DNA of 64,000 nt from Nitrospirota bacterium. GTDB taxonomy: Bacteria > Nitrospirota > Thermodesulfovibrionia > Thermodesulfovibrionales > JdFR-88. Where the stretch lies: assembly GCA_014874185.1 (NCBI GenBank), contig JACWAF010000033.1, positions 21,234 through 85,233 of the forward strand, in the 5' to 3' direction. Under the pieces are notes generated by a model. That model saw only the letters and a program-made list of their open reading frames with translations. It made no database searches and was not told the origin of the DNA. Both the position numbers and the translations under genes were made by a program. Shown here piece by piece: positions 18,733 through 40,248 of this stretch (position 1 is the stretch's first letter; every line of letters starts with the position of its first letter).

Positions 18733-21700
18733 ATGGGCTGGATACAGGACATAGTGGACCCCAAGGCAAGACTGTGGGAGGAATTGTACCGGAACCGGTG
18801 GGAATACGACCGACTGCACAGGAGCACCCATGGCGTGAACTGCACGGGCGGATGTTCCTGGGAGGTCTACGTGAAAGACGGCATCGTGGTCTGGGAGCTG
18901 CAGGCCACCGATTATCCTTCCCTTGAGCCCGGACTTCCCGGTTATGAGCCCCGCGGATGCCAGAGGGGCATAACCTTTTCCTGGTATATATACAGCCCTC
19001 TCAGGGTGAAATACCCCTATATAAGAGGCGTACTGGCCGATATGTGGCGGAAGGCCAGGGCGGCCTTCGCCGATCCCGTCGAGGCATGGGCGTCGATTAT
19101 GGAAGATGAAGAGGCCAGGAAGAGATTTCAGAAGGCCAGGGGAAAGGGCGGACTGAGGCGCACTACATGGGACGAAGCCGTGGAGATAATCTCCGCCGCC
19201 ACCCTTTATACCATAAAGAAGTACGGCCCCGACCGGCTGGCGGGTTTTACGCCCATCCCGGCCATGTCCATGCTCAGCTACGCCTCGGGCGCCAGGTTCC
19301 TGCAGCTTCTGGGCGGGGTAGTCCTCAGCTTTTACGACTGGTATGCCGATTTCCCTCCGGCCTTTCCGGAGGTCTGGGGGGACAAGACCGACGTTGGGGA
19401 GAGCGCGGACTGGTACAACAGCAAGATGATCGCCGTTATGGGGTCGAACCTGAACATGACGAGGACGCCTGACGTGCACTTTGCCGCGGAGGCAAGGAAC
19501 AACGGCTCCAAACTTGTCGTCTTCTCCCCGGATTTCAGCCAGCTCTCCAAATACGCCGACTGGTGGCTGCCAGTGAGGGCCGGGCAGGACGCGGCCTTCT
19601 GGATGGCCGTGGACCACGTGATCCTTAAAGAGTTTTACGCCGATGCGGAGGTCCCTTTCTTCTCCGGGTATCTGAAAAAATATACGGACGCCCCGTTCCT
19701 GGTTGAAATAGAAGTGAAAGAGGACTCCAACAGGGCTGGAAAATTCCTCCGGGCGGGCGAGCTTGACCGGTATAAAGGTTCCGAAAACCCCGAATGGAAA
19801 CTCCTGGTATTCGATGCCAAAACGAACTCGGCAAAATCTCCCAACGGCTCGATAGGGTTCAGATGGCAGAAGCGGGAAGGGCTGTGGAACCTCAATATGA
19901 AAGACGGCGAGGACGGTTCGGAAATAGAGCCGGTGCTCAGTTTTATAAAAGACAGGGATGCCGTCATCCCGGTAGATTTCCATTCTGCCGGGGATGCCGG
20001 GAATCTCCGGCGCGGGGTGCCGGTAAAGTACATCGAGACTGCGAGGGGCCCGGTGGCCGTAAGCACGGCCTTTGACCTGATGACGTCGCAGTTCGGCGTC
20101 TCGCGCGGCCTGGAGGGGGATTATCCTGAAGGGTACGGCGATAATATGGCTTATACCCCTGCATGGCAGGAAAAACATACGGGGATAAGTGCGGACACCG
20201 TTGTGCAGTTCGCGCGCGAATGGGCCCGCACCGCAGTCAGCACCAGGGGCAAATGCATGGTAATCGCGGGCTCCGGCGTGAACCACTGGTACAACGCCAA
20301 CCTGATTTACCGTTCGGCCATTACGGCCCTGATGCTCTGCGGGTGCGTGGGGGTGAACGGGGGAGGGATGAACCACTATACCGGGCAGGAGAAGATCGTC
20401 CCCGAGTCGGCCTGGCGCACTATCGCGTTCGCGACGGACTGGCTCAATCCGCCACGCCTTCAGAATACGCCCTCTTACCATTACGTGCACAGCTGCCAGT
20501 GGCGCTACGACTCGCCCGGACGCGAGGACAGGATCCTTGGGAACGATCACCCCATGGATATGCAGGCCATGGCGGTGCGCCTAGGGTGGCTGCCTTTTTA
20601 TCCCCAGTTCGACAGGAGCACCATCGGGCTTGTGAAAGAGGCCGCAGGGGCGGGTGCGAAAACGGATGATGAGATAATAAGCTGGCTTATACGAGAACTG
20701 AAGGAAGAGAGGGTCCGCTTCGCCGTGGAGGAACCGGACAGGCCTGAAAACTGGCCCAGGGTTCTTTTCATATGGCGCGGCAACGCCCTCCACACCAGCG
20801 CAAAAGGCGAAGAGTATTCGTTCAAACATTACCTTGGCACCGGCACAAACGAGATATCCGAAGAGACGAAGAACCCGCCCATCCATGATGTAAGCATGAA
20901 GTGGCCGGCCCCCGAGGGAAAGCTGGACCTTGTCGTGGATCTTAATTTCAGGATGGACACCTCGGCGCTTTATTCCGATATCATACTGCCCTCCGCAAGC
21001 TGGTACGAAAAAGACGACATGAACACGACCGACCTTCATTCCTATATCCATCCCCTTTCCGCCGCGGTGCCCCCGTGCTGGGAGTCGAAGGACGACTGGG
21101 AGATTTTCAAGACGATAGCAAGGAAAGTGAGCGAGCTTTCCAGGGCCCATTTCCCAAGGCCGTTCAAGGACATCGTTGCCACCCCCCTCATGCATGATTC
21201 AAGGGATGAAATGGCACAGCCCTCGGTCAAGGACTGGAAAAAGGGCGAGTGCGAGCCCATCCCCGGAAAGACCATGCCCAGGTTCACCATAGTGGAAAGA
21301 AATTATCCGGACCTCTATAACAGGTATATCTCCTTCGGCCATCTTCCCAAAAAGACCGGCATGCACGAAAAGGGCGTCCACTGGCAGATGGAAGACCTCT
21401 ATTACGATTATCTGAAGGGAGCGCCGTCTGAAACCTGGGGCGGCAAGACCTACATATCACTTTCGGGGGCAAGGGAGGCGGCCAATGTGGTCCTGTTCTT
21501 CGCCCCGGAGACAAACGGTGAGGTATCACACAGGGGTTTTGAGGACCTCGAAAAAAAGACCGGCGTGAAACTGGCCGGCCTGGCGGAAGAGACGAGGGGG
21601 GTGCGCTACAGTTTCGCGGACCTCCTGGCCCAGCCAAGAAGGATACTTACATCTCCATGCTGGACCGGCATAACGAACAGGGGCAGGGCATACTCGGCCT

Positions 21701-22329
21701 TTGTGATAAACGTGGAGCGGGGAGTGCCCTGGCGGACCCTTTCCGGGCGGCAGCATTTTTACATGGACCATGAAGGCTATCGCGAGTTCAACGAGGGCTT
21801 CCCCACCTTCAAGGCAAAGCTTACGAAAGAGCGCTCCGGGGACCTGCGGAAGACAGCCTCCGCGGGCAGGTCCGTCCTTCTCAACTGCCTGACCCCGCAT
21901 GGCAAGTGGCACATACACAGCACCTATTCTGACAACTTGCTGATGCTGCTCCTGTCGAGAGGGGTGGAGCCTTTCTGGCTGAACCTGGCGGACGCCGCGG
22001 AAATTGGCGTAAGGGACAACGACTGGGTGGAGGTCTACAACGACAACGGGGTGGTGGTGACCAGGGCGGTCCTGAGCGCGCGAATCCCGAGGGGGGTGGG
22101 CTTCTTCTATCATGCCCCTGAGCGCACTATGGGTTTCCCGAAATCGCCCTTGAGAAATATGAAACGGGGAGGCGGCACGAACGCCCTGACGCGCGTGCGC
22201 CTTAAACCCCTTTTCATGATCGGCGGATACGCGCAGTTTTCATACGCGTTCAATTACTGGGGGCCTCCGGCCCCGGACAGGGACACGTACGCCCTGGTCC
22301 GGAAGCTGGAAGGCAAGCCGGTTTTTTAA
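18733..22329 (+). CDS. narG: Respiratory nitrate reductase alpha subunit (NarG-type Mo-bisMGD enzyme; could equally be a cytoplasm-facing NxrA)
   Basis: ATG at 18733 after AGAGGTG. HRSTHGVNCTGGCSWEVY is the FS0 H-x3-C-x3-C motif. Similarity to my recollection of E. coli NarG runs end to end (GPDRLAGFTPIPAMSMLSYASGARF, YDWYADFPP, ILPSASWYEKDDMNT, TPHGKWHIHSTYSDNLLML). No twin-arginine signal. Confidence 0.93.
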   Translation: MGWIQDIVDPKARLWEELYRNRWEYDRLHRSTHGVNCTGGCSWEVYVKDGIVVWELQATDYPSLEPGLPGYEPRGCQRGITFSWYIYSPLRVKYPYIRGVLADMWRKARAAFADPVEAWASIMEDEEARKRFQKARGKGGLRRTTWDEAVEIISAATLYTIKKYGPDRLAGFTPIPAMSMLSYASGARFLQLLGGVVLSFYDWYADFPPAFPEVWGDKTDVGESADWYNSKMIAVMGSNLNMTRTPDVHFAAEARNNGSKLVVFSPDFSQLSKYADWWLPVRAGQDAAFWMAVDHVILKEFYADAEVPFFSGYLKKYTDAPFLVEIEVKEDSNRAGKFLRAGELDRYKGSENPEWKLLVFDAKTNSAKSPNGSIGFRWQKREGLWNLNMKDGEDGSEIEPVLSFIKDRDAVIPVDFHSAGDAGNLRRGVPVKYIETARGPVAVSTAFDLMTSQFGVSRGLEGDYPEGYGDNMAYTPAWQEKHTGISADTVVQFAREWARTAVSTRGKCMVIAGSGVNHWYNANLIYRSAITALMLCGCVGVNGGGMNHYTGQEKIVPESAWRTIAFATDWLNPPRLQNTPSYHYVHSCQWRYDSPGREDRILGNDHPMDMQAMAVRLGWLPFYPQFDRSTIGLVKEAAGAGAKTDDEIISWLIRELKEERVRFAVEEPDRPENWPRVLFIWRGNALHTSAKGEEYSFKHYLGTGTNEISEETKNPPIHDVSMKWPAPEGKLDLVVDLNFRMDTSALYSDIILPSASWYEKDDMNTTDLHSYIHPLSAAVPPCWESKDDWEIFKTIARKVSELSRAHFPRPFKDIVATPLMHDSRDEMAQPSVKDWKKGECEPIPGKTMPRFTIVERNYPDLYNRYISFGHLPKKTGMHEKGVHWQMEDLYYDYLKGAPSETWGGKTYISLSGAREAANVVLFFAPETNGEVSHRGFEDLEKKTGVKLAGLAEETRGVRYSFADLLAQPRRILTSPCWTGITNRGRAYSAFVINVERGVPWRTLSGRQHFYMDHEGYREFNEGFPTFKAKLTKERSGDLRKTASAGRSVLLNCLTPHGKWHIHSTYSDNLLMLLLSRGVEPFWLNLADAAEIGVRDNDWVEVYNDNGVVVTRAVLSARIPRGVGFFYHAPERTMGFPKSPLRNMKRGGGTNALTRVRLKPLFMIGGYAQFSYAFNYWGPPAPDRDTYALVRKLEGKPVF

Positions 22330-22340
22330 GAGGAGATAAA

Positions 22341-23828
22341 GTGGACATCCGCGCCCAGGTATCGATGGTCTTTCATCTGGACAAGTGCATAGGCTGCCAC
22401 ACATGCAGCATCGCCTGCAAGAACATCTGGACCCCCAGGCGCGGCACCGAGTACATGTGGTGGAACAACGTTGAGACGAAGCCCGGCACCGGCTATCCCA
22501 CCCTGTGGGAAGACCAGGGTAAATACAGGGGCGGCTGGGCCGTCCACAAGGGAAAACCCAAACTGAAATTGCAGGGCAGGGCGGGCGCGCTGGCCAACAT
22601 ATTCTTCAACCCGTATCTGCCCACGATGGGCGACTATTACGAGCCCTGGACATATCACTATGAAGACCTCGCCAATGCCCCGGAGGGCGACGACCAGCCG
22701 GTCGCGACCCCGGTCTCGGAGATAACCGGCCGGGACATGGAAATAGAGGCCGGGCCTAACTGGGATGATGATCTGAGCGGCTCTTACATTTATGCCGAAA
22801 GCGACCCGAACAGGCTGGCGCTTACGCCGGAGGAGAGAGAGGTCTCCTTCAGGATGGAGAGGCTCGCCTTCTTCTACCTGCCCAGGATCTGCAATCACTG
22901 CCTGAACCCCGGCTGCCTTGCCGCGTGTCCGGCGGGCGCCATTTACAAACGCGGGATGGACGGCATAGTGCTTGTAAGCCAGGACAAGTGCCGGGCGTGG
23001 AGGATGTGCATATCCGGCTGTCCGTATAAAAAAGTCTATTACAACTGGGCGACGGGAAAATCCGAGAAGTGCATATTGTGCTATCCAAGGCAGGAAACGC
23101 AGCAGCCGCCCGCGTGTTTCCACGCGTGCGTGGGGCGCATCCGTTATCTGGGGCTGGTGCTTTATGATGCCAAGATGATAGAGGCGGCCGCCTCCGTTCC
23201 GGACCATGAGCTTGTGAGCGCGCACAGGGACATTATTAAAGACCCGTTTGACCCGGAGGTCATCGCCAGGGCGAAAGAGAATGGCATATCCGATCACATG
23301 ATCAAAGCCGCGCAGTCGTCGCCCGTATACAAATTTGTGAAAGAGTGGCGGATCGCGCTCCCCCTTCATCCAGAATTCAGGACACTGCCGATGCTCTTTT
23401 ATGTCCCGCCGCTTCTTCCGGTTACAGCCTCGATGAAAGACGGCATCTACGAGAGCACGGGTGAATTTTTCGGCTCACTTGAGAATTTGAGGGTCCCTCT
23501 CAGGTATTTCGCGTCGCTTCTGGCCGGGGGGAACGAAGCCGAAGTGGAGCGCTCTTTCAAAAAGCTCTACGCGGTGCGGGTCTACAGGCGCGCGCAGACG
23601 GCGGGCGATATAAGCCAGAAGGAGGTCAGCCGGGTGCTCGAAGCGGCGGACACGTCTCCGGAGGAAGTCGAAGCCATATACAAAATGAGCTCGCTTGCCT
23701 CATATGAGGAGCGGTTCGTCATGCCGCCGTTCATGCGCGAGGCGGCCATAGAGGCCGAGGAAGAGCCGTCCAGGAGAAAAACGGATGCAGGGGCCGGGTT
23801 CATAAGCAAACTGAGGAGGGGTATCTGA
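22341..23828 (+). CDS. narH: Respiratory nitrate reductase beta subunit (Fe-S)
   Basis: GTG start 7 nt after AGGAG. MDIRAQVSMVFHLDKCIGCHTCSIACKNIW..WWNNVETKPG closely parallels E. coli NarH. Further Cys clusters CNHCLNPGCLAACP and CRAWRMCISGCPY. Confidence 0.95.
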   Translation: MDIRAQVSMVFHLDKCIGCHTCSIACKNIWTPRRGTEYMWWNNVETKPGTGYPTLWEDQGKYRGGWAVHKGKPKLKLQGRAGALANIFFNPYLPTMGDYYEPWTYHYEDLANAPEGDDQPVATPVSEITGRDMEIEAGPNWDDDLSGSYIYAESDPNRLALTPEEREVSFRMERLAFFYLPRICNHCLNPGCLAACPAGAIYKRGMDGIVLVSQDKCRAWRMCISGCPYKKVYYNWATGKSEKCILCYPRQETQQPPACFHACVGRIRYLGLVLYDAKMIEAAASVPDHELVSAHRDIIKDPFDPEVIARAKENGISDHMIKAAQSSPVYKFVKEWRIALPLHPEFRTLPMLFYVPPLLPVTASMKDGIYESTGEFFGSLENLRVPLRYFASLLAGGNEAEVERSFKKLYAVRVYRRAQTAGDISQKEVSRVLEAADTSPEEVEAIYKMSSLASYEERFVMPPFMREAAIEAEEEPSRRKTDAGAGFISKLRRGI

Positions 23829-23832
23829 AAAT

Positions 23833-24363
23833 ATGGAAAACTGCCCTGCGGGGCTTTATGCCCTTTTTGCGGACCTGATGGATTATCCCACCCCCGCCTT
23901 GAAGGAAAAGGCGGGCGAGTGCGCTTCCGCCTTGCCGGCGGTGAACGGAAAGGCCCTGGGCCCGTTTTCCAGGTTCAGGGATTTTCTGGAAGGGGCCGAA
24001 CTCTCCCTGGTCGAGGAACTTTACACAAGGACATTCGATCTGCAGCCCGTGTGTCCCCCATACGCCGGGCAATACCTCTTCGGTCAGGACATGAGGCGGG
24101 GCATGTTCATGGCGAAATTAAGGAAGCTCTACCGCGAGCGCAATTTCCCGGAGAACGGCGAACTTCCGGACCACCTTGGCGTGATGCTCAGGTTCGTGTC
24201 GAAAAGCCCCTCCATCGAGGAGGCCAGGGAGATTGTGGAATTCTGTCTTGTGCCCTCTTTTCAGAAAATGGTCTCGAAGCTTGCGGAAGGGGAAAACCCT
24301 TACGGGTTTCTGGTCAACGCAATCCTCCTGGCCCTGAACGGGAAAGAGGAGAAAGCGGCGTAG
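23833..24363 (+). CDS. narJ: Nitrate reductase molybdenum cofactor assembly chaperone (NarJ/TorD family)
   Basis: 176 aa. Position between narH and narI. YTRTFDL and ELPDHLGVMLRF motifs typical of NarJ. Confidence 0.8.
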   Translation: MENCPAGLYALFADLMDYPTPALKEKAGECASALPAVNGKALGPFSRFRDFLEGAELSLVEELYTRTFDLQPVCPPYAGQYLFGQDMRRGMFMAKLRKLYRERNFPENGELPDHLGVMLRFVSKSPSIEEAREIVEFCLVPSFQKMVSKLAEGENPYGFLVNAILLALNGKEEKAA

Positions 24364-24367
24364 AGAT

Positions 24368-25072
24368 ATGTCAGATACGGTCTATTTCATAGCCTTCCCC
24401 TACCTTGCCCTCTTTGCCGCATTGGGAGGCGGCCTTTACAGGTACTACAAGCACCGGTTTACGTATTCGAGCGTCTCCTCCCAGCTACTGGAGAACAGGA
24501 TGCTTTTCTGGGGTTCCGTGCCCTGGCATTACGGGATAATCCTGATACTTCTTGCCCATATCGTTCCCCTGGTGGCAACGCCCTTCTGGATATGGCTCCA
24601 TGCGGATCCCACCAGGATACTGCTCCTGGAGGTCATCGGCTCGGCCATGGGGTTCCTGGCCATCCTGGGCATGGCGGCCCTGATCCTGAGGCGCCTCTTC
24701 AGCTTGAAGCCGCGCCATGCCACATCCATCATGGACTGGGTGCTATTGATCGACCTGGCATTTCAGATAGCGCTCGGGTTTTACATCACCCTGTATTACA
24801 GGTGGGGATCAAGCTGGTATCTGTTCACGGCCACTCCGTGGATACGCTCGCTTGCCGCCCTGAACCCCAGGGTAGATTTCGTCAATGAGCTGCCGCCGGT
24901 TGTCCAGCTCCATTTCGTGAACGGGTTCCTGGTTATCGCCCTGATACCGTTTACAAGGCTGGGCCACTTGTTTACCGTTCCGGTCACTTATCTGTGGAGG
25001 CCGTTCCAGGTATTTATATGGAGCAGGAAGAAAAACGGCTATAATGAAACGGGAGGCATATATGGGAAATGA
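24368..25072 (+). CDS. narI: Respiratory nitrate reductase gamma subunit (diheme b, membrane)
   Basis: 234 aa with five TM helices. Conserved His in WHYGIILILLAHIV and later helices. The gene order narGHJI fits. Confidence 0.85.
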   Translation: MSDTVYFIAFPYLALFAALGGGLYRYYKHRFTYSSVSSQLLENRMLFWGSVPWHYGIILILLAHIVPLVATPFWIWLHADPTRILLLEVIGSAMGFLAILGMAALILRRLFSLKPRHATSIMDWVLLIDLAFQIALGFYITLYYRWGSSWYLFTATPWIRSLAALNPRVDFVNELPPVVQLHFVNGFLVIALIPFTRLGHLFTVPVTYLWRPFQVFIWSRKKNGYNETGGIYGK

Positions 25073-25589
25073 AGAGGAGCGGTCAGCCCCTACGGTCTCA
25101 AGGCGGAGCTTTGTATTGAGAGCGGTCATAGGCGTGTTCACTTCGCTGGGCGCGCTGGTGATGGCCGTGCCTTTTTTAAGGGTGGTATTCAACGCCGCCC
25201 CGCTTAGAAAGGCCGAATGGGCCGAAGCCGCCAATATCAGCATATTGCCGGAAGGGCAGCCGAAAGACGTTAAATTCGAGGCCCATTCGGTGGACGCTTA
25301 TTTGCGGCAGATGAAACTGAGGAGCGTATGGGTGATAAAGCACTCCCCCGAAATTTTTTCCGTTTTTTCCCCCATCTGCCCCCACCTGGGCTGCTATTAT
25401 AAGTGGGACCCCTCGACACAGCATTTCGAATGCCCCTGCCATGGCAGCGTTTTCACCATTACCGGGAAGGTCATAGGCGGGCCTGCTCCAAGGCCGCTGG
25501 ACACCCTCCCTTACAAGGTGCAGGGGGGCAAGCTGTTTGTGAAGTGGGAGAGGTTCCAGGTCGGCATACCTCAGAAGGTAAGGGTATAG
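25062..25589 (+). CDS. Rieske [2Fe-2S] protein with twin-arginine signal (bc-complex copy 1)
   Basis: GGGAGG then ATG at 25062 (an alternative ATG lies at 25044). SRRSFVLRAVIG Tat motif. CPHLGC...CPCHGS Rieske boxes. Overlaps the narI 3' end by 11 nt. Confidence 0.9.
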   Translation: MGNEEERSAPTVSRRSFVLRAVIGVFTSLGALVMAVPFLRVVFNAAPLRKAEWAEAANISILPEGQPKDVKFEAHSVDAYLRQMKLRSVWVIKHSPEIFSVFSPICPHLGCYYKWDPSTQHFECPCHGSVFTITGKVIGGPAPRPLDTLPYKVQGGKLFVKWERFQVGIPQKVRV

Positions 25590-25591: not shown

Positions 25592-27583
25592 ATGGCCTGG
25601 AAATGGTTTACCGAAAAGTGGCCCTATTACCAGCTTAAAAAGCTGCTCCTTTATGAGGAGCTGCCCGGAGGAGCTGCGTTTGCGTCTACGCTGGGAAGCT
25701 CCCTCATGGTCATCTTTACCTTGCAGGTCCTCACCGGCATAGCCCAGCTCTTCTATTATGTCCCTACGACAGACCATGCCTACGACAGCGTGGCCTATCT
25801 GCGCACGGAAGTCCCGTTCGGCTGGTTCGTTCATAACATGCACTACTGGGGCGCCAACGCGATGGTCCTCGTTATCGCCCTGCACATGATAAGGGTTTAT
25901 GTCTGGGGGGCATACAAGACACAGCTTACCTGGCTTATCGGGGTCGCCCTCATGCTTTGCGCAATGGTAATGAGCTTCACCGGCGCGCCCCTCATATGGG
26001 ACGAGAAGGGATACTGGGCAGGTGAAGTAGGCTCCGGCATAACCAGTACTGTCCCTGTTTTGGGCAATATTGTGAAAACGATACTCCGGGGCGGCGAATC
26101 GATGGGCCAGCTTTCGATATCCCGGTTCTTCGTATTTCATGTGTGGGTCTTCGCGCCGGTCCTGGCTTTCCTGATAGCGGCCCATATAGCGGCCTTAAGG
26201 ACGACCGGGATAGCAGGCCCCTGGGATGAAAGAAAGAGAAGGCGGGTGGGCCATTTCTGGCCGGACCAGGCGGCTAGAGACATTATCGTGGCCTCGGTCG
26301 TCTTTTTCATCCTGGTCACCCTTTCCGTATTTTTGCCCCCTCCGTTCACCGGGCAGGCGGACCCCCTCAACACATCCTATGTGCCCAAACCGGAGTGGAA
26401 CTTCCTTTTCGTCTACCAGGCGCTCAAATATTTTCAGGGCCCGCTGGAGCCGGTCGGCACCGTGGGCGTGCCGACAGTTCTTATAGTTCTCCTTGTCATA
26501 TTGCCCTTCATTGACAAGGGCCCGGAACGGAACCCGCTTAGAAGGCCGATTGCAATGGCCTGCCTGTTCGTATATGCCTGTTTCATAATAGCCATGACCA
26601 TAATGGGTTATCTCAGCCCCGGTTTTGCCCAGATGGCCGGGGCGGCCGGGGCCCCGGCGGCAAGGTTGGGAAAAGGCGAGACCGGCGGCGCAAAAGGGCC
26701 GGCTGGGAAGGGCGTTGCGGCCGGCCGGAAGCTCTTTCAAAGCGAAGGCTGTGCCGGATGCCACAAGGTAAACGGACAGGGCGGAACCATGGGGCCTGAG
26801 TTATCAGGGGCCACGCTGAAGGGAAAGACCAGGAAGTGGCTTGCCGATCAGATAAGAAACCCGAAATCACATAATCCGAATTCCATAATGCCCGCTTTCA
26901 GCCAGCTCTCGAAGAACCAGGTAAACGCGCTGGTTGACTATCTCATGGGTCTTGCTGGCACTGGCGGGGCCCCGGGGCCTGCGGCAAAGCCGCAGCCCCG
27001 GGCGCCGGGTGCCGGTGCTCAAGTCCAGCCCGGTCAGGCAAATGCGGTATCGGCACCGGGGCAGGCCCAACCCAGCCAATTAAAGGTGGTCCCGCCCGAT
27101 ACGGTGCCGGAAACTCCGTCGGGTAAAGCGGCATATATAATAGGCAGTGCCAGCAATGGAGAACAGCTCTTCAAGGAACAATGCGCGCAATGCCATGGGG
27201 CAAAAGGGGCTGGCGGAGTGCCCAATCCCGGTTCGGCTGAGGGGGTGGTCCCCCCGCTTAGTCCCATAAATAAAAACATCGCGAGCCCGGACCCGAAGCA
27301 GTTTGCCCGGAACATAGATAAATTCATTCAGCATGGGGCCATTCCCCCAGGGCCCAATCCGGCCCTGCAGATGCCGGTCTTCGGCGACAATAATTCCCTC
27401 ACCCAGCCGGAGATTTCAAACATAGAGGCATACATACTGAAGCTGAACGGGGTGGACCGCAGCATCCCCGCTCACCCCGGAATGGACCCGCGCCTGTTTT
27501 ATGCGGTATTCGTTATCGCCTATGTTGTCGCCGCAATCGTTCTCCTCATGATGTGGCGAAATGCGGGGAGGAGCCGGACATGA
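25592..27583 (+). CDS. Fusion protein: cytochrome b (b6-like N domain + subunit IV-like C domain) + two class I c-type heme domains + C-terminal TM anchor
   Basis: ATG at 25592 (MAWKWFTEKW). Helix B is H-x13-H (HYWGANAMVLVIALH) and helix D is H-x14-H (HVWVFAPVLAFLIAAH). KPEWNFLF sits at the PEWY position. CAGCH..MPAF and CAQCH..MPVF heme c units are separated by P/A/G/Q-rich linkers. Terminal TM helix FYAVFVIAYVVAAIVLLMMW. Confidence 0.9.
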   Translation: MAWKWFTEKWPYYQLKKLLLYEELPGGAAFASTLGSSLMVIFTLQVLTGIAQLFYYVPTTDHAYDSVAYLRTEVPFGWFVHNMHYWGANAMVLVIALHMIRVYVWGAYKTQLTWLIGVALMLCAMVMSFTGAPLIWDEKGYWAGEVGSGITSTVPVLGNIVKTILRGGESMGQLSISRFFVFHVWVFAPVLAFLIAAHIAALRTTGIAGPWDERKRRRVGHFWPDQAARDIIVASVVFFILVTLSVFLPPPFTGQADPLNTSYVPKPEWNFLFVYQALKYFQGPLEPVGTVGVPTVLIVLLVILPFIDKGPERNPLRRPIAMACLFVYACFIIAMTIMGYLSPGFAQMAGAAGAPAARLGKGETGGAKGPAGKGVAAGRKLFQSEGCAGCHKVNGQGGTMGPELSGATLKGKTRKWLADQIRNPKSHNPNSIMPAFSQLSKNQVNALVDYLMGLAGTGGAPGPAAKPQPRAPGAGAQVQPGQANAVSAPGQAQPSQLKVVPPDTVPETPSGKAAYIIGSASNGEQLFKEQCAQCHGAKGAGGVPNPGSAEGVVPPLSPINKNIASPDPKQFARNIDKFIQHGAIPPGPNPALQMPVFGDNNSLTQPEISNIEAYILKLNGVDRSIPAHPGMDPRLFYAVFVIAYVVAAIVLLMMWRNAGRSRT

Positions 27584-28059
27584 AAATAGCCATAGGCTCC
27601 GATCACGGCGGTTTCGTACAGAAGGGGATAATCAGGCAATTCCTGGCAGAGGCAGGCCACGAGGTAACCGATATGGGCGCCCACAGCTTCAATCCCATCG
27701 ATGATTACCCGGAATTTTCCAGGAAGGTTGCCGAAGCCGTCCTCGATGGCCGGGCCGAAAGGGGCATACTGATATGCGGCAGCGGGGTGGGGGCCTCCAT
27801 TGCCGCCAACAAGTTCCCGGGTATAAGGGCGGCCGTCTGCCATGATACCTTTTCCGCCCGCCAGGGGGTCGAGGACGACAACATGAACGTCCTCTGCATG
27901 GGTGAAAGGGTTGTTGGCCACGAGCTTGCGAAAGAGATAGTGGAGAGGTTCATCTCCGCCCGGTTCTCAGGGGCCGAGAGGCATCTGCGCAGGCTGAAAG
28001 AGGTAACGGAGATGGAAAAGGAATTTCTGAAGCCGGCTGGGGGGGCCGGGCCGTGCTAA
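27580..28059 (+). CDS. rpiB: Ribose-5-phosphate isomerase B
   Basis: ATG at 27580 in an ATGA overlap with the cytochrome b-c stop. MKIAIGSDHGG...ICGSGVG.SIAANK...R motifs of RpiB/LacAB. Confidence 0.9.
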   Translation: MKIAIGSDHGGFVQKGIIRQFLAEAGHEVTDMGAHSFNPIDDYPEFSRKVAEAVLDGRAERGILICGSGVGASIAANKFPGIRAAVCHDTFSARQGVEDDNMNVLCMGERVVGHELAKEIVERFISARFSGAERHLRRLKEVTEMEKEFLKPAGGAGPC

Positions 28060-29594
28060 TGAAAGAGATCATCGATATAAGATTCCTCGAGTCCTGCGAC
28101 TTTCCGGCGGAACAATACAAGATACAGCCGTTCACGATGGTGATCTTCGGGGGGGCAGGGGACCTGAGCAGGCGCAAGCTCATACCCTCGATCGTCCATC
28201 TCTTCAAGGACAGGGAGCTGGCGAACCTGAACTTTTCGATAATTTCCTTCGGCATGCCTGAGATGGGCGATTCCGCGTACAGGGATTACATGAAAGAGGG
28301 CTACCTGCTTTATGACGAGGACCCGGACAAGAATCTCTGGGACGAGTTCGCGAGGCATATCCACTACCTCCCGGCCGATTTCAACGACGACTCCAAATAC
28401 CGCCAGCTTAAAGACAAGCTGGAGCAGGTGGGGCTCTGCTCGGAGTTCCAGAAAAACCTGATCTATTACATGGCCGTTCCCCCTTCGGCCGTCCCCGCGA
28501 TAATAGGAAAACTGAAGGAATTCGAACTCTGCAAGGGGGACTACCGGACCAAGCTCATAGTGGAAAAGCCCTTCGGGCGCGACCATGATTCCGCCGCCCA
28601 TCTGGATGAAATACTAAACCAGGCGTTTGAGGAAGACCAGATATACAGGATAGACCATTATCTGAGCAAGGAGCCCGTACAGAATATATTGTTTTTCCGG
28701 TTCTCCAATTTCATATTCGAGCAGATATGGAACCGTAATTATATAAGCAACGTGCAGATCACGGCGGCAGAGGACATAGGCATAGAGCACAGGGGCGCTT
28801 TTTACGAACAGACGGGCGTCGTAAGGGACATGGTCCAGAACCACATGCTTCAGCTCCTGGCCTTTGTGGCGATGGAGCCCCCCGTCAGCTTCAAGCAGGA
28901 CTACATAAGGGACGAAAAGACCCGGGTATTCCGCTCGATTTTTCCCTTCGACAATGAGTTCATCGACAAATACACGGTCAGGGGGCAATATGCCGGGGGT
29001 GAAACAGGCGGGGAGAAAGTCCCCGGCTACCGCGGGGAGAAGAACGTTTCTCCCGGTTCAGACCAGCCCACCTTCTTTGCGGGGAAATTTTACGTGGACA
29101 ACCTGCGGTGGGCGGGGGTCCCGTTTTTCCTGCGCACCGGCAAGAGGCTGAACAAGAAGCTCACCGAGATAGCCATCCAGTTCAAATATCTCCCGATACG
29201 GCTCTTTGGCAGGATCTGCGACCTCCCGGAGGCAAACATACTTATCTTCACCATTCAGCCGGATGAAAAGATATCGATGCGCTTCGCCGTGAAAGACCCC
29301 AGGTTCGAAAACCGCATTCAGCCGGTCAACATGGTCTTCAACTATTCTGAGGTGTTCAAGACGCAGCCTCTGCCCGCTTACGAGCGGCTCCTTGTGGACT
29401 GCATGAAGAGCGATCTGAGGGCCTTCGTCCGGCGGGATTCGGTAGAGGAGATGTGGCGGGTTGTGGACCCCATAATAGCACGATGGGAGGGCGTCCCGCC
29501 AAAAGACTTCCCGAATTACACCGCCGGCTCCTGGGGGCCCGATGCCGCGCGGGAATTGATAGAGAAAGAGGGGTTCCATTGGATCACAAGCTGA
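28059..29594 (+). CDS. zwf: Glucose-6-phosphate 1-dehydrogenase
   Basis: ATG at 28059 overlaps the rpiB TAA (TAATG); a GTG at 28053 is also possible. Motifs FGGAGDLSRRKL, EKPFGRD, RIDHYLSKE (Ser in place of the usual Gly of RIDHYLGKE). Confidence 0.95.
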   Translation: MKEIIDIRFLESCDFPAEQYKIQPFTMVIFGGAGDLSRRKLIPSIVHLFKDRELANLNFSIISFGMPEMGDSAYRDYMKEGYLLYDEDPDKNLWDEFARHIHYLPADFNDDSKYRQLKDKLEQVGLCSEFQKNLIYYMAVPPSAVPAIIGKLKEFELCKGDYRTKLIVEKPFGRDHDSAAHLDEILNQAFEEDQIYRIDHYLSKEPVQNILFFRFSNFIFEQIWNRNYISNVQITAAEDIGIEHRGAFYEQTGVVRDMVQNHMLQLLAFVAMEPPVSFKQDYIRDEKTRVFRSIFPFDNEFIDKYTVRGQYAGGETGGEKVPGYRGEKNVSPGSDQPTFFAGKFYVDNLRWAGVPFFLRTGKRLNKKLTEIAIQFKYLPIRLFGRICDLPEANILIFTIQPDEKISMRFAVKDPRFENRIQPVNMVFNYSEVFKTQPLPAYERLLVDCMKSDLRAFVRRDSVEEMWRVVDPIIARWEGVPPKDFPNYTAGSWGPDAARELIEKEGFHWITS

Positions 29595-30328
29595 AGGAAA
29601 AAGGCGGCCTTTTCGTCTTTTCAAGCGAGGGCGAACTGGCGGATTTTTTCATCTCCAGATGGCGTGAGAACTCTTCCCGGTCCATCCGGGAAAGAGGTAA
29701 GTTCACCGCGGCGCTATCAGGTGGAAAGAGCCCGGTGGAGATATACTCCAGGCTCTCGCGGGCCGGTGGACTGGACTGGGGGCGCACTTTCATCTTCCAG
29801 GTGGACGAGAGGCTGGTGCCCCGGACCAGCGCGGACAGCAATTTCAATATGATCAAAAGCACCCTTCTGAACAGGATAAGGATACCCGCCGGAAACGTGT
29901 TCCCGGTGCCGGTAGAGGAGAGCACGCCGCAACTTGCGGCGGAAAGGTACGAAGCGGAAATAAAGAGCTTTTTCGGCTTGCGCCCCGGCGAATTCCCCGT
30001 CTTTGACCTCATCTCGCTTGGCATAGGCGAGGACGGGCATACGGCGTCTCTCTTTCCGGGCAGCCCGGCCTTGGATGAAAAGGAGCATATTGTCGCGGCT
30101 GTCCATCCGGGCGGCGGGATGCACGACCGGATCACGCTGACCCTGCCGGTCCTGAACAGGGCAAGAGAGGTCATATTCGCCGTGAAAGGAAAAGAAAAGG
30201 CGCACATATTCAAAAAGGTGGTTGATGGAGACAGGAATTGTCCCGCGGCACTGGTGGTGCCCGATGGAGAACTCCTCTTCGTTGCCGATATGGAAGCGGC
30301 CGCCCTCATCAGCATGGAAAAGGCCTAG
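29579..30328 (+). CDS. pgl: 6-phosphogluconolactonase; start codon uncertain (no ATG; TTG 29579 or CTG 29591)
   Basis: ALSGGKSP and GIGEDGHTASLFPG motifs. Every in-frame ATG upstream lies deep inside zwf, so a non-ATG start overlapping the zwf 3' end is inferred. Confidence 0.85.
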   Translation: MDHKLKEKGGLFVFSSEGELADFFISRWRENSSRSIRERGKFTAALSGGKSPVEIYSRLSRAGGLDWGRTFIFQVDERLVPRTSADSNFNMIKSTLLNRIRIPAGNVFPVPVEESTPQLAAERYEAEIKSFFGLRPGEFPVFDLISLGIGEDGHTASLFPGSPALDEKEHIVAAVHPGGGMHDRITLTLPVLNRAREVIFAVKGKEKAHIFKKVVDGDRNCPAALVVPDGELLFVADMEAAALISMEKA

Positions 30329-30391
30329 CGGCCCGGCGGAGAATTACAACCTGTTTGAGCTTGAGGCCAGGCTGGCCTGAAAGGAGATGTG

Positions 30392-31309: not shown

Positions 31310-31436
31310 CTTCTACTTTTCTTTTTTGCAAAAAAGAAAAGTAGCAAAAGAAAAAATTCTTGTATTTTTTTGCCCCATTCGGGGCAAAAAAATCAAAAAG
31401 TTCTCTTTGCTACTTTCTCTAACAAGAGAAAGTAGG
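31310..31436. repeat. Structured AT-rich repeat, family C copy 1 (three hairpins)
   Basis: Hairpins at 31313-31344 (15-bp stem CTACTTTTCTTTTTT/AAAAAAGAAAAGTAG), 31364-31393 (ATTTTTTTGCCCC-ATTC-GGGGCAAAAAAAT) and 31410-31435 (CTACTTTCTCT-AACA-AGAGAAAGTAG). Same modular layout as 51237-51337 and 55674-55760. Confidence 0.6.
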
Positions 31437-31442
31437 GGAATT

Positions 31443-32066: not shown

Positions 32067-32171
32067 AAAAGTATGCTTATCCGGTTTATTCAGTTGATCA
32101 CATTTTCTTGAGTTCGGGGAATAGCTGTAAAGGGTCTCTAAATAAGGCTCTTCGGGAATCGTGTGGGTAGT

Positions 32172-32196
32172 CCCCCCCCTTTGGAAAAGGGGGGGG
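32172..32196. repeat. Family B-type hairpin (C8-TTTGGAAAA-G8)
   Basis: CCCCCCCCTTTGGAAAAGGGGGGGG followed by ATTTTAAAAA. Resembles the CCCTTTGCCAAAGGG-type hairpins at 1294-1340 and the GGGGGATTTTAAA at 55928-55940. Confidence 0.45.
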
Positions 32197-32325
32197 ATTT
32201 TAAAAATAAATGCTCCACTAAAAAGATTGGCATTCTTGCGGGGGCTTAGAAAAAACATGGCGGACGCCGAAAAGTATCCATGGTCAAGGTTTAAAGAGAA
32301 AATTTGGAATTATTTCATGGTTCGA

Positions 32326-32362: not shown

Positions 32363-32427
32363 TCCACAGAAAAGTCTGAAGAGCCCGAAATAATAACGAT
32401 ACATCTCTTTGTATGCAAAGGATTCCT

Positions 32428-32632: not shown

Positions 32633-32646
32633 TTTTGCCTTCACGG

Positions 32647-36515: not shown

Positions 36516-38764
36516 CCCTTTCGGGAAATCCTTTCTCCGGCCTCAAGCAGCATCCCGGCCAGCCGCATTGCCCCTGCCTTGTGCAAGGGCCTGTTCGCGT
36601 TGCCGCACTGGGGGTCCTGCACGCAGGATGGGCAGCCCTCTTCACACGGGCACTCGGTCATGATGGCAAGCGATGCGCCGAGCCATTTCGAAAGCAACTC
36701 ATAGGGCTTCCATGTAAGCCCTATGCCGCCCTCCACGCCGTCATAGAAGAAGATGGCGCTCCCCCCGAAAGACGGATAGAAAGGATAGCTTATCCCGCCT
36801 ATGTCCATCTTGTCGCACATGGAAAAGAGCGGCATGGCCGATATGGCGGCGTGCTCGAAGGCATGCAATGAGCCGCCAAGGTCTGTCTGCTCAAGCTCCT
36901 TTACGATTCCATCCGCCAGCCTCATCCAGACCCCTTTCGTGCTGAAGACGTATTCGGGCAGTTCCAAGGGGTGCACGGAATATCTTTTGCCGTCATGGAG
37001 GCCCCTCTTCTCAAACCCGGTTACCCTGAAGCGAAGTCTGATGCTGCCTTTATGCAGGCTGAAGCCCTTAAAGTTTTCATGCGCGTTTTCATCGATTATC
37101 TCAGCGTTCTGCTCGGACAGGGCCCTTGTAAAATATTCAGCCCCGGTCTCCTCGCAAAAGACCTTCCTGTCCGCATAATCGATCTCCCGCACCCTGTACT
37201 GCCTTCCCCTGTGCAGGTAGATGGCGCCTGGGAAGGCCTCCTTTAAAAGCCTCAGCCCGCCGGTCTCCCCTATCTTCGCGCCCTTTGCGATTATTGAACA
37301 GGCCTCGCCTATGGCCCTTATCCCGGCGTCCCTGTGGGGTGTCCTTCCGGTGGAGAACCAGGTGCCGGGAATCCTCCCCGGGTTCAGTTTCCCTTCTCTT
37401 GCAAGCTCTTCAATGACCGGGTATATTATTTTCCGATCGTAGACCGGGTCGTCCTCTTTAAGGAAGACCTCTTTTGCGGCGCACGGGAGGTGCGCCTTCA
37501 GGATGGCCTCGTTGTCCTGGTCTGTTACGGCCGACTCGCTTGGTTTTCCGAAGAACTCTTCCGGGTGCCTGATGATGTACTGGTCCAGTGCATCGTTCAG
37601 CCCTATGAGCGCAACGATGCTCTCCTGCCCCTGCCTGCCCACCCGCCCGGCCCTCTGCCATGTGCTCGAGACCGAGCCCGGATAGCCTATCAATATGCAG
37701 ACGTCCAGGCCGCCGATGTCAACGCCCAGTTCCAGGGCCGAGGTGGAGACCACGCCAAGGAGTTCTCCATTGAATAGAGCCTGCTCTATCTCCCGCCTTT
37801 CAGAGGGCAGGAACCCCGCCCGATAGGGGCTTACAAGCCCGGCAAGATGCGGGGACTTGGCCAGCGCCCAGGAATAGACAAGCTCGGTTATCTTCCTGGA
37901 TTTGGTAAAAACGATCGTCCTCAGTCCCCGGTCAAGGCAATAGGTGAACAGGTTTACCCCCATCGTGTAAGGGCTTTCGTACTGCGGACTTATGAACAGG
38001 AAATGCTTTCCTCCGGAAGGGGCCCCGCTCCGCTCGACCAGATCGAAGGGAAGCCCTGTCAGGTTTCGGGCCAACTCCGCTGGGTTGGCGATAGTGGCGG
38101 AGCATGTTATGAACTGAGGATTCGCGCCCCATCTCAGGGCTATGCGCCTCAGCCTTCGTATGACCTGTGCCACGTTTGAGCCGAATACCCCCCTGTAGGC
38201 GTGGATCTCATCGAGCACTACAAATTTCAGGTTTCTGAAGAACGCCTCCCACTTTGGGTGGAACGCGTTTATAGCCAGGTGCAGCATGTCAGGGTTGGTG
38301 AATATCACATCCGGCAGATTTTCCCTGATCTTCTTTCTTCTGTACGGGGTGGTGTCGCCGTCGTAGACGGCCCCGCCGGAAAGCCCGAGCGGGCCGGCCA
38401 GCGAATTCAAAGCGCCAAGCTGGTCCTGCTCCAGCCCCTTCATGGGCGAGATATAGAGGGCCTTCGAGCCGGGCGCTTTCAGAAGCATCTCCAGTATGGG
38501 GATATTGTAAATTAGGCTTTTGCCGCTTGCCGTGGGGGTCATCACGACCAGATTGCGGCCCGCCCTTATCAGCCGCAGGGCCTCCGCCTGATGAGAGAAG
38601 AGGCGCTCAATCCCGTTTTCCCTCAGCAGCCTTGAAAGCTCCGGGACGAGTTCGATTTCGGCCCATTCGGCCGGTTTTGGCGGAATGTATTTTTCAAAGG
38701 AAAGCTCGCCCTCCCGAAGGACCCCGCCTTTCAGCCCGGCGAGAAGTTCTTCTGTTTTTTTCAC
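36512..38764 (-). CDS. DEAD/DEAH-box helicase with C-terminal DUF1998 zinc domain (MrfA/YprA family)
   Basis: Walker A TPTASGKS, DEIH box VVLDEIHAYRG, QRAGRVGRQG motif VI, C-terminal C.CEEGCPSCV..PQCGN. The start is set at GTG 38764, a GTGA overlap with the upstream subunit IV stop. The longer ORF to 38977 would overlap that gene by 217 nt. Confidence 0.85.
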   Translation of the reverse strand: MKKTEELLAGLKGGVLREGELSFEKYIPPKPAEWAEIELVPELSRLLRENGIERLFSHQAEALRLIRAGRNLVVMTPTASGKSLIYNIPILEMLLKAPGSKALYISPMKGLEQDQLGALNSLAGPLGLSGGAVYDGDTTPYRRKKIRENLPDVIFTNPDMLHLAINAFHPKWEAFFRNLKFVVLDEIHAYRGVFGSNVAQVIRRLRRIALRWGANPQFITCSATIANPAELARNLTGLPFDLVERSGAPSGGKHFLFISPQYESPYTMGVNLFTYCLDRGLRTIVFTKSRKITELVYSWALAKSPHLAGLVSPYRAGFLPSERREIEQALFNGELLGVVSTSALELGVDIGGLDVCILIGYPGSVSSTWQRAGRVGRQGQESIVALIGLNDALDQYIIRHPEEFFGKPSESAVTDQDNEAILKAHLPCAAKEVFLKEDDPVYDRKIIYPVIEELAREGKLNPGRIPGTWFSTGRTPHRDAGIRAIGEACSIIAKGAKIGETGGLRLLKEAFPGAIYLHRGRQYRVREIDYADRKVFCEETGAEYFTRALSEQNAEIIDENAHENFKGFSLHKGSIRLRFRVTGFEKRGLHDGKRYSVHPLELPEYVFSTKGVWMRLADGIVKELEQTDLGGSLHAFEHAAISAMPLFSMCDKMDIGGISYPFYPSFGGSAIFFYDGVEGGIGLTWKPYELLSKWLGASLAIMTECPCEEGCPSCVQDPQCGNANRPLHKAGAMRLAGMLLEAGERISRKG

Positions 38765-39135
38765 AGGTTGAAGACGGAGAGTATGCTGAGGGTTACCGCG
38801 CTTGCAAGCAGAAAGAGGCCGGCCACCACCGCGATCTTCCTTCCCCTTCCATCCTTGTCCATATACGGTATGAAGACCAGCAGCGAGATGAACACAAGGG
38901 GCATTATAACCGTTCCGAAGAAGGTCCATCGGCCGGGAAAATACCTCAGGAGCTGATAGAGCCAGAGGAAGTACCATTCCGGCTTCGGCGTGAAGCGCGA
39001 GACGAAATCTATCGCCTGCCCGGCCCGCGGCGGAAAAAGGAGCGCCACGGCCAGAAGCAGCTCGAAGGCTATAAAGGCGCTTGCAGCCACATAGGGCAGG
39101 TATTCCGGGTACAGCCGCATTTTCTTTTTTGCCAT
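38761..39135 (-). CDS. Cytochrome b6f subunit IV-like protein (cytochrome b C-terminal domain), bc-complex copy 2
   Basis: 124 aa with three TM helices and a canonical Qo motif, TPKPEWYFLWLYQ. Confidence 0.85.
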   Translation of the reverse strand: MAKKKMRLYPEYLPYVAASAFIAFELLLAVALLFPPRAGQAIDFVSRFTPKPEWYFLWLYQLLRYFPGRWTFFGTVIMPLVFISLLVFIPYMDKDGRGRKIAVVAGLFLLASAVTLSILSVFNL

Positions 39136-39136
39136 A

Positions 39137-39787
39137 TCAGAGCCCCCCTGAAATCCCCTGCCTCTTCACCATATGAAAGTGCGCCCATAGCACCATGAAC
39201 ATGAAAACGGGTATCCAGAGGACGTGCAGGCTGTAAAACCTTATGAGCGTTGCACCCTGCACCTCGGCACCGCCACGGAGAAGCATGACTACAAACGGCC
39301 CGATGCCGGGCACTGTGCCGCCCATCGATGTGCCAACCACCGTGGCCCAGTATGCCTTCTGGTCCCACGGGAGCAGATATCCGGTAAATCCGGAGGCAAG
39401 CACCAGGACAAGGGTAAGCGAGCCGGCTATCCAGTTAAGCTCTCTTGGCGGCCTGTACGCCTTGTAAACGAAAACCCGGACAGTATGGAAGACGATGAAG
39501 ATTATCAGGATGGTTGCGGACCATTTATGCAGGCTTCTTATCAGCCAGCCCCCCCAGACGGCGTTGTTTATCTCAAGCACGCTCTTGTAGGCGTCCGTGG
39601 CGGAGGGCACATAATAGACCGAAAGCATCAGCCCGGTGACAACGGAGGTCATGAAGCAGACAAAAGCCATCCCGCCGAAGCAGTAGGAAAAGTTCAGCTT
39701 TACGGGGACCGACCTGGAGAGGAACCCCTTGTGAGGCTCCCTCAGCCTGAAGAGCCTGTCCAGTACGCGTACGATGAGGTCTATCAA
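39137..39787 (-). CDS. Cytochrome b6-like protein (cytochrome b N-terminal domain), bc-complex copy 2
   Basis: 216 aa. H-x13-H (HKWSATILIIFIVFH) and H-x14-H (HVLWIPVFMFMVLWAH). NFSYCFGG matches the FYCLGG Cys that binds heme ci in b6-type cytochromes. Confidence 0.9.
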   Translation of the reverse strand: MIDLIVRVLDRLFRLREPHKGFLSRSVPVKLNFSYCFGGMAFVCFMTSVVTGLMLSVYYVPSATDAYKSVLEINNAVWGGWLIRSLHKWSATILIIFIVFHTVRVFVYKAYRPPRELNWIAGSLTLVLVLASGFTGYLLPWDQKAYWATVVGTSMGGTVPGIGPFVVMLLRGGAEVQGATLIRFYSLHVLWIPVFMFMVLWAHFHMVKRQGISGGL

Positions 39788-40248
39788 GTCCTCACCCCGA
39801 TGTAGAAATCCCCGTTCACTATCTTATAGGGCAGGCGTGTAAGGGGCCTGGGGGCGGGGCCGCCGATTACCTTGCCCGTTATATCGAAAGCGCTCCCGTG
39901 GCAGGGGCAGTCGAATTCGTTCTTGAAGGGGTTCCAGCGCACCTGGCAGCCAAGATGGGTGCATGTGGGCGAGAGGGCGATAATCTTCCCGTTCGCGTTT
40001 GAGAGGTAGACCCTGAAGCTCTGGTCACGGAAGGTGAAATCCACTTTCTTGACCCCTCTGCGCGGGAGGGAGTACTCATCGAATACCCTGACGAACTCTA
40101 ACGCGCCTTCTTTTCCCGTGCTGAAAGGATAGAAATAAGGCAGGCCGGCAAGCCCTCCGAGTCCCAAAACCGCCAGAGAGGCCTTTACGAGAGCGGAAAG
40201 GAAATCCCTTCTGCCTTCATGGCCTTTATTCCTCTGTGTCCTCAACAT
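39784..40248 (-). CDS. Rieske [2Fe-2S] protein with Tat-like signal, bc-complex copy 2
   Basis: GRRDFLSALVKASLAV, CTHLGC...CPCHGS. 4-nt overlap with the b6-like gene. The start overlaps the ihfB 3' end by 23 nt. Confidence 0.9.
   Translation of the reverse strand: MLRTQRNKGHEGRRDFLSALVKASLAVLGLGGLAGLPYFYPFSTGKEGALEFVRVFDEYSLPRRGVKKVDFTFRDQSFRVYLSNANGKIIALSPTCTHLGCQVRWNPFKNEFDCPCHGSAFDITGKVIGGPAPRPLTRLPYKIVNGDFYIGVRT

Follow-up and report, generated by a model that had tools for sequence, protein, structure and literature searches.

A clade-wide PEWN variant of the Qo motif in a cytochrome b-cytochrome c fusion protein encoded beside nitrate reductase genes in Nitrospirota

What enzyme is built around a protein that joins cytochrome b, subunit IV and two c-type cytochromes in one chain, has asparagine in place of the tyrosine of its quinol oxidation (Qo) motif, and is encoded with a Rieske protein just after a set of nitrate reductase genes? 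The question is raised by an open reading frame (ORF) of 663 codons plus stop at 25592-27583(+) in a 64,000-nucleotide (nt) stretch of DNA from a Nitrospirota bacterium, referred to here as the window. The sequence points to a Rieske/cytochrome b complex encoded by two genes, this one for the combined cytochrome b and c subunit and the upstream one for the Rieske protein; the complex is probably a menaquinol:cytochrome c oxidoreductase. We read it as a quinol:cytochrome c oxidoreductase because the Rieske partner and the complex I and oxidase genes that neighbour the family are where a complex III belongs. Its Qo site, with PEWN for PEWY and alanine for a second tyrosine on helix C, is a clade-wide variant that has apparently escaped earlier description.

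Residues were compared in two homologue alignments (A1 and A2) and with the solved cytochrome b6 chains 7r0w_I, 2zt9_A and 1vf5_A. The parts of the ORF are as follows.

25592..27583, plus strand: fused cytochrome b / subunit IV / cytochrome c / cytochrome c / transmembrane anchor protein, 663 amino acids (translation, Pfam, NCBIfam)
25673..26206, plus strand: four-helix cytochrome b core, helices A-D, residues 28-205, haem b ligands H84, H98, H183 and H198 (alignments, model)
25688..25690, plus strand: Thr33, at the position of the haem ci/cn cysteine of cytochrome b6 (alignment to 7r0w_I, 2zt9_A, 1vf5_A)
25985..25987, plus strand: Ala132, at the helix-C Qo tyrosine position (bovine Y131 / Rhodobacter Y147; alignment)
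26264..26614, plus strand: subunit IV-like part, helices E, F and G, residues 225-341 (Pfam Cytochrom_B_C 255-342; model helices 225-247, 283-307, 317-341)
26390..26401, plus strand: Qo motif P267-E268-W269-N270 (PEWN; translation, alignment)
26627..26701, plus strand: Gly/Ala-rich disordered linker 1, residues 346-370 (predicted local distance difference test, pLDDT, <50; variable in A1)
26708..26959, plus strand: cytochrome c domain 1, residues 373-456, CAGCH 387-391, Met433 in IMPAF (Pfam, alignment)
26963..27106, plus strand: Pro/Ala/Gly/Gln-rich disordered linker 2, residues ~458-505 (pLDDT <50 over 458-495)
27122..27481, plus strand: cytochrome c domain 2, residues 511-630, CAQCH 531-535, Met594 in QMPVFG (pLDDT ~90)
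27494..27556, plus strand: C-terminal membrane anchor helix, residues 635-655, then a basic tail, RNAGRSRT (hydropathy, model)

Translation gives one unbroken chain, 100% identical to the database protein P0001. It opens with the ATG at 25592, 3 nt past the Rieske stop; homologues start at the equivalent site, and we regard the annotated start as correct. In the cytochrome b core 13 residues lie between H84 and H98 and 14 between H183 and H198, and all four histidines are invariant in A1 and A2. Pfam recognises Cytochrome_B at residues 33-206 (142.4 bits, cut-off 27.2), Cytochrom_B_C at 255-342 (37.4 bits, cut-off 20.7) and two class I cytochrome c stretches (Cytochrom_C/Cytochrome_CBB3; 86 bits for Cytochrom_C). 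The nearest NCBIfam models (cytochrome b6, ExtP, subunit IV and several mono-haem c families) all score below their own cut-offs: cytochrome b6 (NF002990) reaches 175.3 against 325, and the actinobacterial models reach 77.2 against 500 (bc1_QcrB_actin) and 45.1 against 200 (bc1_QcrC_actin). The best sequence matches of the N-terminal half are b6 proteins (E 5e-44). Foldseek superposed the b/IV part of an AlphaFold2 model (pLDDT 78, predicted template-modelling score, pTM, 0.73) on bc1 cytochromes b of the PDB with a template-modelling score (TM-score) of ~0.73 relative to the target; no other part of the model was matched, and the comparison has no bearing on the c domains. Hydropathy and the model give seven helices, A-G, in the b/IV part plus one C-terminal anchor, with the K/R-rich loops on the negative (N) side of the membrane. 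Because of this helix count and the basic loops on the cytoplasmic side, both c domains are predicted to lie on the positive (P) side. The cysteine of the b6 'YCLGG' motif (Cys35 of b6) aligns with Thr33 of 'STLGS'; conservation here reaches at least 90% in A2, and the 71 locus proteins matched have T in 48 cases, V in 14, A in 7, S in 2 and Cys in none. The b6+IV body of the protein thus has seven helices, two sites for haem b and none for haem ci; after it come two class I cytochrome c domains with one haem each, on the P side, and an anchor. A preliminary description, made from the DNA letters, had proposed the b6-type core with its H-x13-H and H-x14-H pairs, the subunit IV-like helices in the same chain, the CAGCH/IMPAF and CAQCH/MPVFG domains, the Gly/Ala-rich and P/A/G/Q-rich linkers, the terminal transmembrane helix and the missing haem ci cysteine, and had suggested a topology prediction with both haem c domains on the P side; each of these stands.

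At the Qo position, residues 266-271 (nt 26387-26404) do read K-P-E-W-N-F, as first noted. The first three motif positions are canonical and Asn270 breaks the P-[E/D/P]-W-[Y/F] pattern at the fourth, which in a published survey is Y in 84%, F in 13% and another residue in 3%. Glu268, Trp269 and the downstream Tyr275 (bovine Y278) are kept. A protein search of 5.8 billion sequences gave 755 matches at E<=1e-10, and our homologue counts rest on the 120 listed; a genome scan with one genome per species gave 195 relatives, and our locus counts rest on the best 80 of these, or 81 with the window. The tally of domains and fourth-position residues that the preliminary description had called for shows full-length fusions in 120 of 120 homologues, with Asn at the fourth position, in any motif, in 108. 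The motif is PEWN itself in 99; the remaining 12 have Gln, Asp or Ala there and, in one case, Tyr. PEWN is likewise found in 72 of 81 locus proteins. Asn at this position therefore reads as a signature of the clade and not as a peculiarity of the window copy; a one-off Tyr-to-Asn mutation or a sequencing error was considered and rejected, Asn being the clade norm.

The second tyrosine, which goes beyond the preliminary description as does the nitrate reductase context below, is that of the helix-C 'TGY.LPW' motif. At this position, Ala132 in the window, none of the 120 homologues has Y, the residues being A, G, T, S or P, and the alanine co-varies with the Asn of PEWN. In a wider survey ordered by similarity, the tier nearest to the query is Ala/PEWN and the next tier consists of cytochrome b-c fusions at 33-40% identity, with Tyr/PEWY in 61 representatives and Tyr/PDWY in 11. 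Since the nearest tier has lost both tyrosines and the next has both, the two losses appear to go together in one derived clade. According to a 2021 review the helix-C tyrosine is conserved among all bc1 complexes, activity is dramatically affected when Rhodobacter Y147 is replaced by F, V, S or A, and the PEWY tyrosine hydrogen-bonds myxothiazol (PMC7908018). No description of PEWN together with cytochrome b was found in the searchable full-text literature, a search that left subscription papers (e.g. ten Brink et al. 2013) and the supplementary tables of Kao & Hunte 2014 outside, so that a prior mention is possible and PEWN might figure in the 3% 'other'. This large and phylogenetically broad complex III-like clade does without two tyrosines of the Qo pocket, one of which has been called universal and intolerant of mutation in bc1, and is a natural experiment on which residues are needed for quinol oxidation and proton exit.

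The family as a whole is real, large and widespread, and is often met in uncultured anaerobes. A profile-free scan of 1.84 billion cluster representatives returned 829 at E<=1e-30. The 120 listed homologues come from independent assemblies (NCBI, JGI, ENA, Logan), and every one is a continuous b+IV+c(n) chain of 609-1067 amino acids with the same Pfam set and 2, 3 or 4 CxxCH motifs. Copy number varies for c domain 1 (1-3 copies) but not for the last c domain or the anchor; domain 2 is also the more conserved, with 33 invariant columns in A1 against 14 in domain 1. The best 80 relatives are metagenome-assembled genomes (MAGs) of Nitrospirota (including Thermodesulfovibrionales, Dissulfurispiraceae and Ca. 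Sulfobium), Anaerolineae, Thermodesulfobacteriota and Syntrophales, together with Gemmatimonadota, Bacteroidota, Ignavibacteria, Kryptoniota, Aminicenantes and Calditrichaceae. The relatives at 57-61% identity to the window protein are Nitrospirota, Thermodesulfovibrionales and Ca. Sulfobium MAGs. The preliminary description had regarded b+IV+c+c in a single chain as an undescribed architecture, and here it was wrong. Fusions of cytochrome b to class I cytochrome c have been described, with Nitrospira, Acidobacteria, Planctomycetes, Firmicutes and Verrucomicrobia named (Kao & Hunte 2014), and CIII_2 of Nitrospira moscoviensis consists of a Rieske protein, a 'fused cytochrome b/c' and a dihaem c (Mundinger et al. 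2019, PMC6606698). Because these are on record and the exact b+IV+c+c chain is abundant in databases, the architecture is known and common, not new, and the fusion in itself adds little. The same description had left room for PEWN-type fusions to be a common and described family; the family is common (120 listed homologues, 195 relatives), but no paper that mentions its PEWN motif was found.

Immediately upstream of the fusion gene lie the genes for a Rieske protein and for nitrate reductase:

18733..24363, plus strand: narG 18733-22329, narH 22341-23828, narJ 23833-24363 (Pfam, NCBIfam)
24368..25072, plus strand: narI (nitrate reductase gamma), overlapping the Rieske ORF in another frame
25044..25589, plus strand: Rieske 2Fe-2S protein gene, ending 3 nt before the fusion ORF; likely start ATG 25062

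The Rieske protein has a twin-arginine translocation (Tat)-type motif, SRRSFVL, and the cluster boxes CPHLGC and CPCHGSVF, and its in-frame ATG at 25062 is preceded at a distance of 5 nt by GGAGG (25052-25056). A Rieske-like ORF is present in 79 of 81 loci, directly upstream of the cytochrome b-c fusion in nearly all. The twin-arginine (RR) motif occurs in 61/61 of these proteins and 'SF' in the cluster box in 45/61, a signature associated with potentials of 200-230 mV (Baymann 2012, PMC3509893). Recurrent neighbours of the family are complex I, haem-copper oxidase (COX1, COX2-cytochrome c, SCO1 and CtaB, haem O synthase) and small cytochromes c, and haem-copper oxidase genes adjoin 11 family loci. 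Complex I genes adjoin the family in 10-13 other loci. On the plus strand of the window the order is nuoA-N, narG, narH, narJ, narI, Rieske, cytochrome b-c fusion, rpiB, zwf, pgl, gnd. The nuoA-N set is complete, with a fused nuoCD (3611-18092(+)), and because it directly precedes narG on the same strand, the nuo, nar and bc-type genes form one co-directional string. Behind the Rieske/cytochrome b-c pair, 27553-35917 of the window contains genes of the oxidative pentose-phosphate pathway: rpiB, zwf, pgl and gnd and, after them on the opposite strand, tal and tkt; this linkage recurs in relatives of several phyla (L084 12110-19161; gnd in 21/81, zwf in 13/81 and rpiB in 6/81 loci). In one relative, from a Syntrophaceae MAG, Rieske, cytochrome b and cytochrome c all appear to be joined in a single ORF of 825 amino acids with PEWY (L035 9962-12439).

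How would electrons pass through such a complex? Quinol would be oxidised at the remodelled Qo site, where the roles of the tyrosine hydroxyls in proton exit and hydrogen bonding might fall to the Asn carboxamide together with bound water. One electron would go from the Rieske cluster to the anchored last c domain, in the role of cytochrome c1 or f, and from there to the upstream c domain, a tethered shuttle that would deliver it to the terminal enzyme. The second electron would cross the membrane by way of haems bL and bH and reach a Qi site (for quinone reduction) free of haem ci. We read the last c domain as the c1/f equivalent because it is anchored, confidently modelled and has the greater number of invariant columns, and the first as probably a tethered shuttle because it sits between disordered linkers and varies in copy number.

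The identity of the terminal enzyme brings in the nitrate reductase genes. The window NarG scores 1456 bits with the model TIGR01580 (cut-off 1084), NarH 633 (cut-off 524) and NarI 106.1 (cut-off 105.55), with NarJ just below its equivalog cut-off (57.0 against 59.35). A Tat signal was looked for in the window NarG and none was found, so that it is predicted to be of the cytoplasmic type. Besides the window, only 5 family loci out of 80 are linked to nar genes. One ORF encodes both NarI and the Rieske protein in every other nar-linked relative examined, and it adjoins the cytochrome b-c fusion each time; such ORFs occur in L003, L005, L006, L014 and L081-L085, at these positions among others:

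L003 8782-9972; L005 8776-9975; L006 4488-5717; L014 18416-19696; L081 9001-10212; L083 9001-10473; L084 9001-10161: NarI-Rieske single ORF

In these ORFs the five helices of NarI are followed by a linker, a Tat motif of the form (I/V)SRRxFFLK, and the anchor and domain of the Rieske part. Both Pfam domains are present in 94 of the best 120 database relatives of the fused ORF. NarI-Rieske polypeptides beside cytochrome b-c genes occur in Nitrospirota, Thermodesulfobacteriota and Acidobacteriota. Among independent contigs, the order in L084 and L085 is narGHJ-[NarI-Rieske]-[cytochrome b-c-c, PEWN]-rpiB-zwf-pgl-gnd, in synteny with the window; in Bryobacterales and in a further assembly (L083) it is narGHJ-[NarI-Rieske]-[cytochrome b plus one c, PDWY]. 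The fusion thus recurs with two different cytochrome b-c clades, the PEWN dihaem and the PDWY monohaem forms. In L014 the ORF checked upstream of the cytochrome b-c-c gene is not a Rieske gene, and the only Rieske match of that locus is the NarI-fused one. Topologically the NarI and Rieske parts fit together, the one ending and the other starting in the cytoplasm, and dual insertion of polytopic Rieske proteins by the general secretory (Sec) and Tat systems is established (Tooke 2017). No description of a NarI-Rieske fusion was found in the searchable full-text literature, subscription papers lying outside the search.

Two further kinds of gene occur at such loci. A cytochrome c gene of ~290-300 amino acids lies immediately upstream of narG in L014 (11926-12831), L086 (401-1273) and L087 (361-1233), and is, we presume, comparable to narC of Thermus. 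L086 and L087 have a stand-alone NarI with neither Rieske nor cytochrome b, and the upstream cytochrome c may be there in place of the c domains; because no Rieske gene follows their narI, they are not examples of a natural split between the two. A SLAC1/TehA-type anion channel gene stands beside nar-Rieske-cytochrome b/c clusters in L014 (19802-20805, two ORFs) and L084 (16126-17166) and may encode a nitrate or nitrite channel that replaces NarK.

Given the NarI-Rieske fusions of the other nar-linked relatives examined, the complex would sit physically against NarGHI. Q-cycle electrons could then pass through the c haems to the P-side haem of NarI, a route that would raise the H+/e- yield of nitrate respiration. 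On the gene fusion evidence alone, coupling to nitrate reductase is a worthwhile hypothesis and the most interesting lead at this locus. In its fullest form it would be a hard-wired supercomplex of Nar and the Rieske/cytochrome b complex, in which menaquinol is oxidised only at the PEWN Qo site and electrons run from Rieske through the two c haems to NarI haem bD, haem bP, NarH and NarG, with ~4 charges per 2 e- against 2; we offer this form tentatively and would sooner doubt it than rely on it. It would stack a Q cycle on the transmembrane electron transfer of NarI. The NarI-Rieske polypeptides would be its 'Rosetta stone', and the dependence of Streptomyces Nar1 on bcc the same principle without a fusion. 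Textbook schemes exclude such a joining, and the only earlier hint was co-purification in Streptomyces spores; the NarI-Rieske fusions beside cytochrome b-c genes are strong genomic evidence that a bacterial Nar of the cytoplasmic type can join a Q-cycle complex physically. If electrons do take this route, the figure assumed for the energy that many uncultured bacteria of soils and sediments gain from nitrate respiration is too low by a factor of two.

Several points weigh against the reading developed so far. In the window itself narI and the Rieske gene are two ORFs that overlap by 29 nt in different frames, with no fusion; the split reflects either a true fission of the gene or an error of one base, and GGAGG with ATG 25062 fits a genuine, translationally coupled Rieske gene. 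NarI may still oxidise quinol itself. Since only 5 of 80 loci are nar-linked and others lie beside oxidase genes, Nar is not the general partner of the family. A normal bifurcating Q cycle is no given, because the Y147 replacements are so damaging in Rhodobacter bc1 (PMC7908018), and the roles given to the two c domains draw on conservation and linker disorder only.

Some of these points lead to a different view, in which the complex and NarGHI are independent quinol oxidases, merely co-regulated or co-assembled, with the bc complex feeding nitrite, NO or N2O reductases or an oxidase and Nar using menaquinol directly, as in E. coli. We consider this quite possible, short of probable. It is favoured by a NarI that keeps all four haem ligands and has a basic residue at the quinol-site position of E. 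coli Lys86, by a NarG that is a standard narG equivalog, by the 11 loci beside haem-copper oxidase genes with most family members away from nar, and by the textbook scheme in which bacterial Nar bypasses the Rieske/cytochrome b complex (Baymann 2012, PMC3509893). The Lys86 position was also tried as a discriminator between the models of electron flow; it is Arg in the window NarI and uninformative. Against independence stand the covalent NarI-Rieske fusion, recurring with the PEWN dihaem and the PDWY monohaem clades alike, the lack of any Rieske match in L014 other than the NarI-fused protein, and the nar-linked clusters examined, none of which has a gene for a cytochrome c-dependent reductase.

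It is improbable that the complex runs no bifurcating Q cycle at all and is instead a simple quinol dehydrogenase, or works in reverse from cytochrome c or nitrite to quinone, with the b haems as a transmembrane wire. The crippling effect of helix-C tyrosine loss in Rhodobacter bc1 (PMC7908018) and the absence of haem ci speak for this, and whole cytochromes b are known to serve as modules in non-bc enzymes (Kao & Hunte 2014). The other Q-cycle hardware, however, is strictly conserved across the family (the four histidines, Glu268, Trp269, Tyr275 and a mobile-type Rieske protein with Tat anchor), the family stands at the usual place of complex III between complex I and oxidase genes, and NarG, going by its model score, resembles a reductase and not a known nitrite oxidoreductase clade. 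Last, an assembly or frameshift artefact might have joined two separate genes, one for cytochrome b and one for a dihaem cytochrome c. The sole point in favour is that an indel could hide in the GC-rich linker of low complexity at ~26627-26701, and this reading is effectively ruled out by the continuous chains in all the listed homologues from independent assemblies and in 80 genome loci of several phyla, the b/c join being topologically sound as well, with helix G ending on the P side.

The window also encodes a second Rieske/cytochrome b complex, of the split type:

38761..40248, minus strand: paralogous split complex, Rieske 39784-40248, cytochrome b6 (CFGG, TGY) 39137-39787 and subunit IV (PEWY) 38761-39135 (Pfam, NCBIfam, translations)

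Its b6 protein (39137-39787(-)) has 'YCFGG', bearing out the haem ci cysteine first noted in this paralogue, and keeps TGY; the separate subunit IV (38761-39135(-)) reads PKPEWYF. The split set has no adjoining cytochrome c gene, and its flanks encode a DEAD/MrfA-type helicase, an HU-like protein, an S49 peptidase and ribosomal protein S1.

How does the proposed menaquinol:cytochrome c oxidoreductase compare with systems already known? The cytochrome b-c fusion clades (Kao & Hunte 2014; Nitrospira CIII_2) share with it an unsplit b+IV part and at least one class I cytochrome c at the C-terminus. They occur in Nitrospirota, Acidobacteria, Planctomycetes and Firmicutes and are the next-nearest tier to the query, at 33-40% identity, in a ranking by similarity. 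They differ in having Tyr at the fourth Qo position, and mostly at the helix-C position too, where the window clade has Asn (or Gln/Asp) and Ala (or Gly/Thr/Ser), respectively; the motifs of the Kao & Hunte 2014 clades are PEWY or PDWY, or PAWY in acidophiles, against PEWN in the window. The N. moscoviensis CIII_2, in addition, has an extra, separate dihaem c subunit. Cytochrome b6f and the Bacillus-Heliobacterium 'green clade' are alike in H-x14-H on helix D, in their seven helices and in a C-terminus and fused c domain on the P side. In the 'green clade' b6 and subunit IV are separate, and Bacillus QcrC is subunit IV fused to cytochrome c, whereas the window chain has b6 and IV fused, Thr33 for the haem ci/cn cysteine, and two c domains with an anchor. 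The actinobacterial bcc complex (QcrB with dihaem QcrC) is likewise of the menaquinol type, with two c haems in series and no need for a soluble cytochrome c; there, unlike here, QcrC is a separate subunit, and no NarI-Rieske fusion has been reported. In Streptomyces coelicolor the cytoplasmic-type Nar1 needs, and co-purifies with, the bcc-aa3 supercomplex, and the authors hypothesised electron transfer from the c haems to NarI haem bD, with 4 rather than 2 H+ per 2 e- (Falke 2021, PMC7931247). The haloarchaeal narB/narC genes (Baymann 2012, PMC3509893) come close in context, as Rieske and cytochrome b genes within a nar cluster whose Q-cycle complex is proposed to feed Nar. Haloarchaeal NarGH, in contrast, faces outward and does without NarI (PMC3509893), while in the window NarG has no Tat signal and NarI is present.

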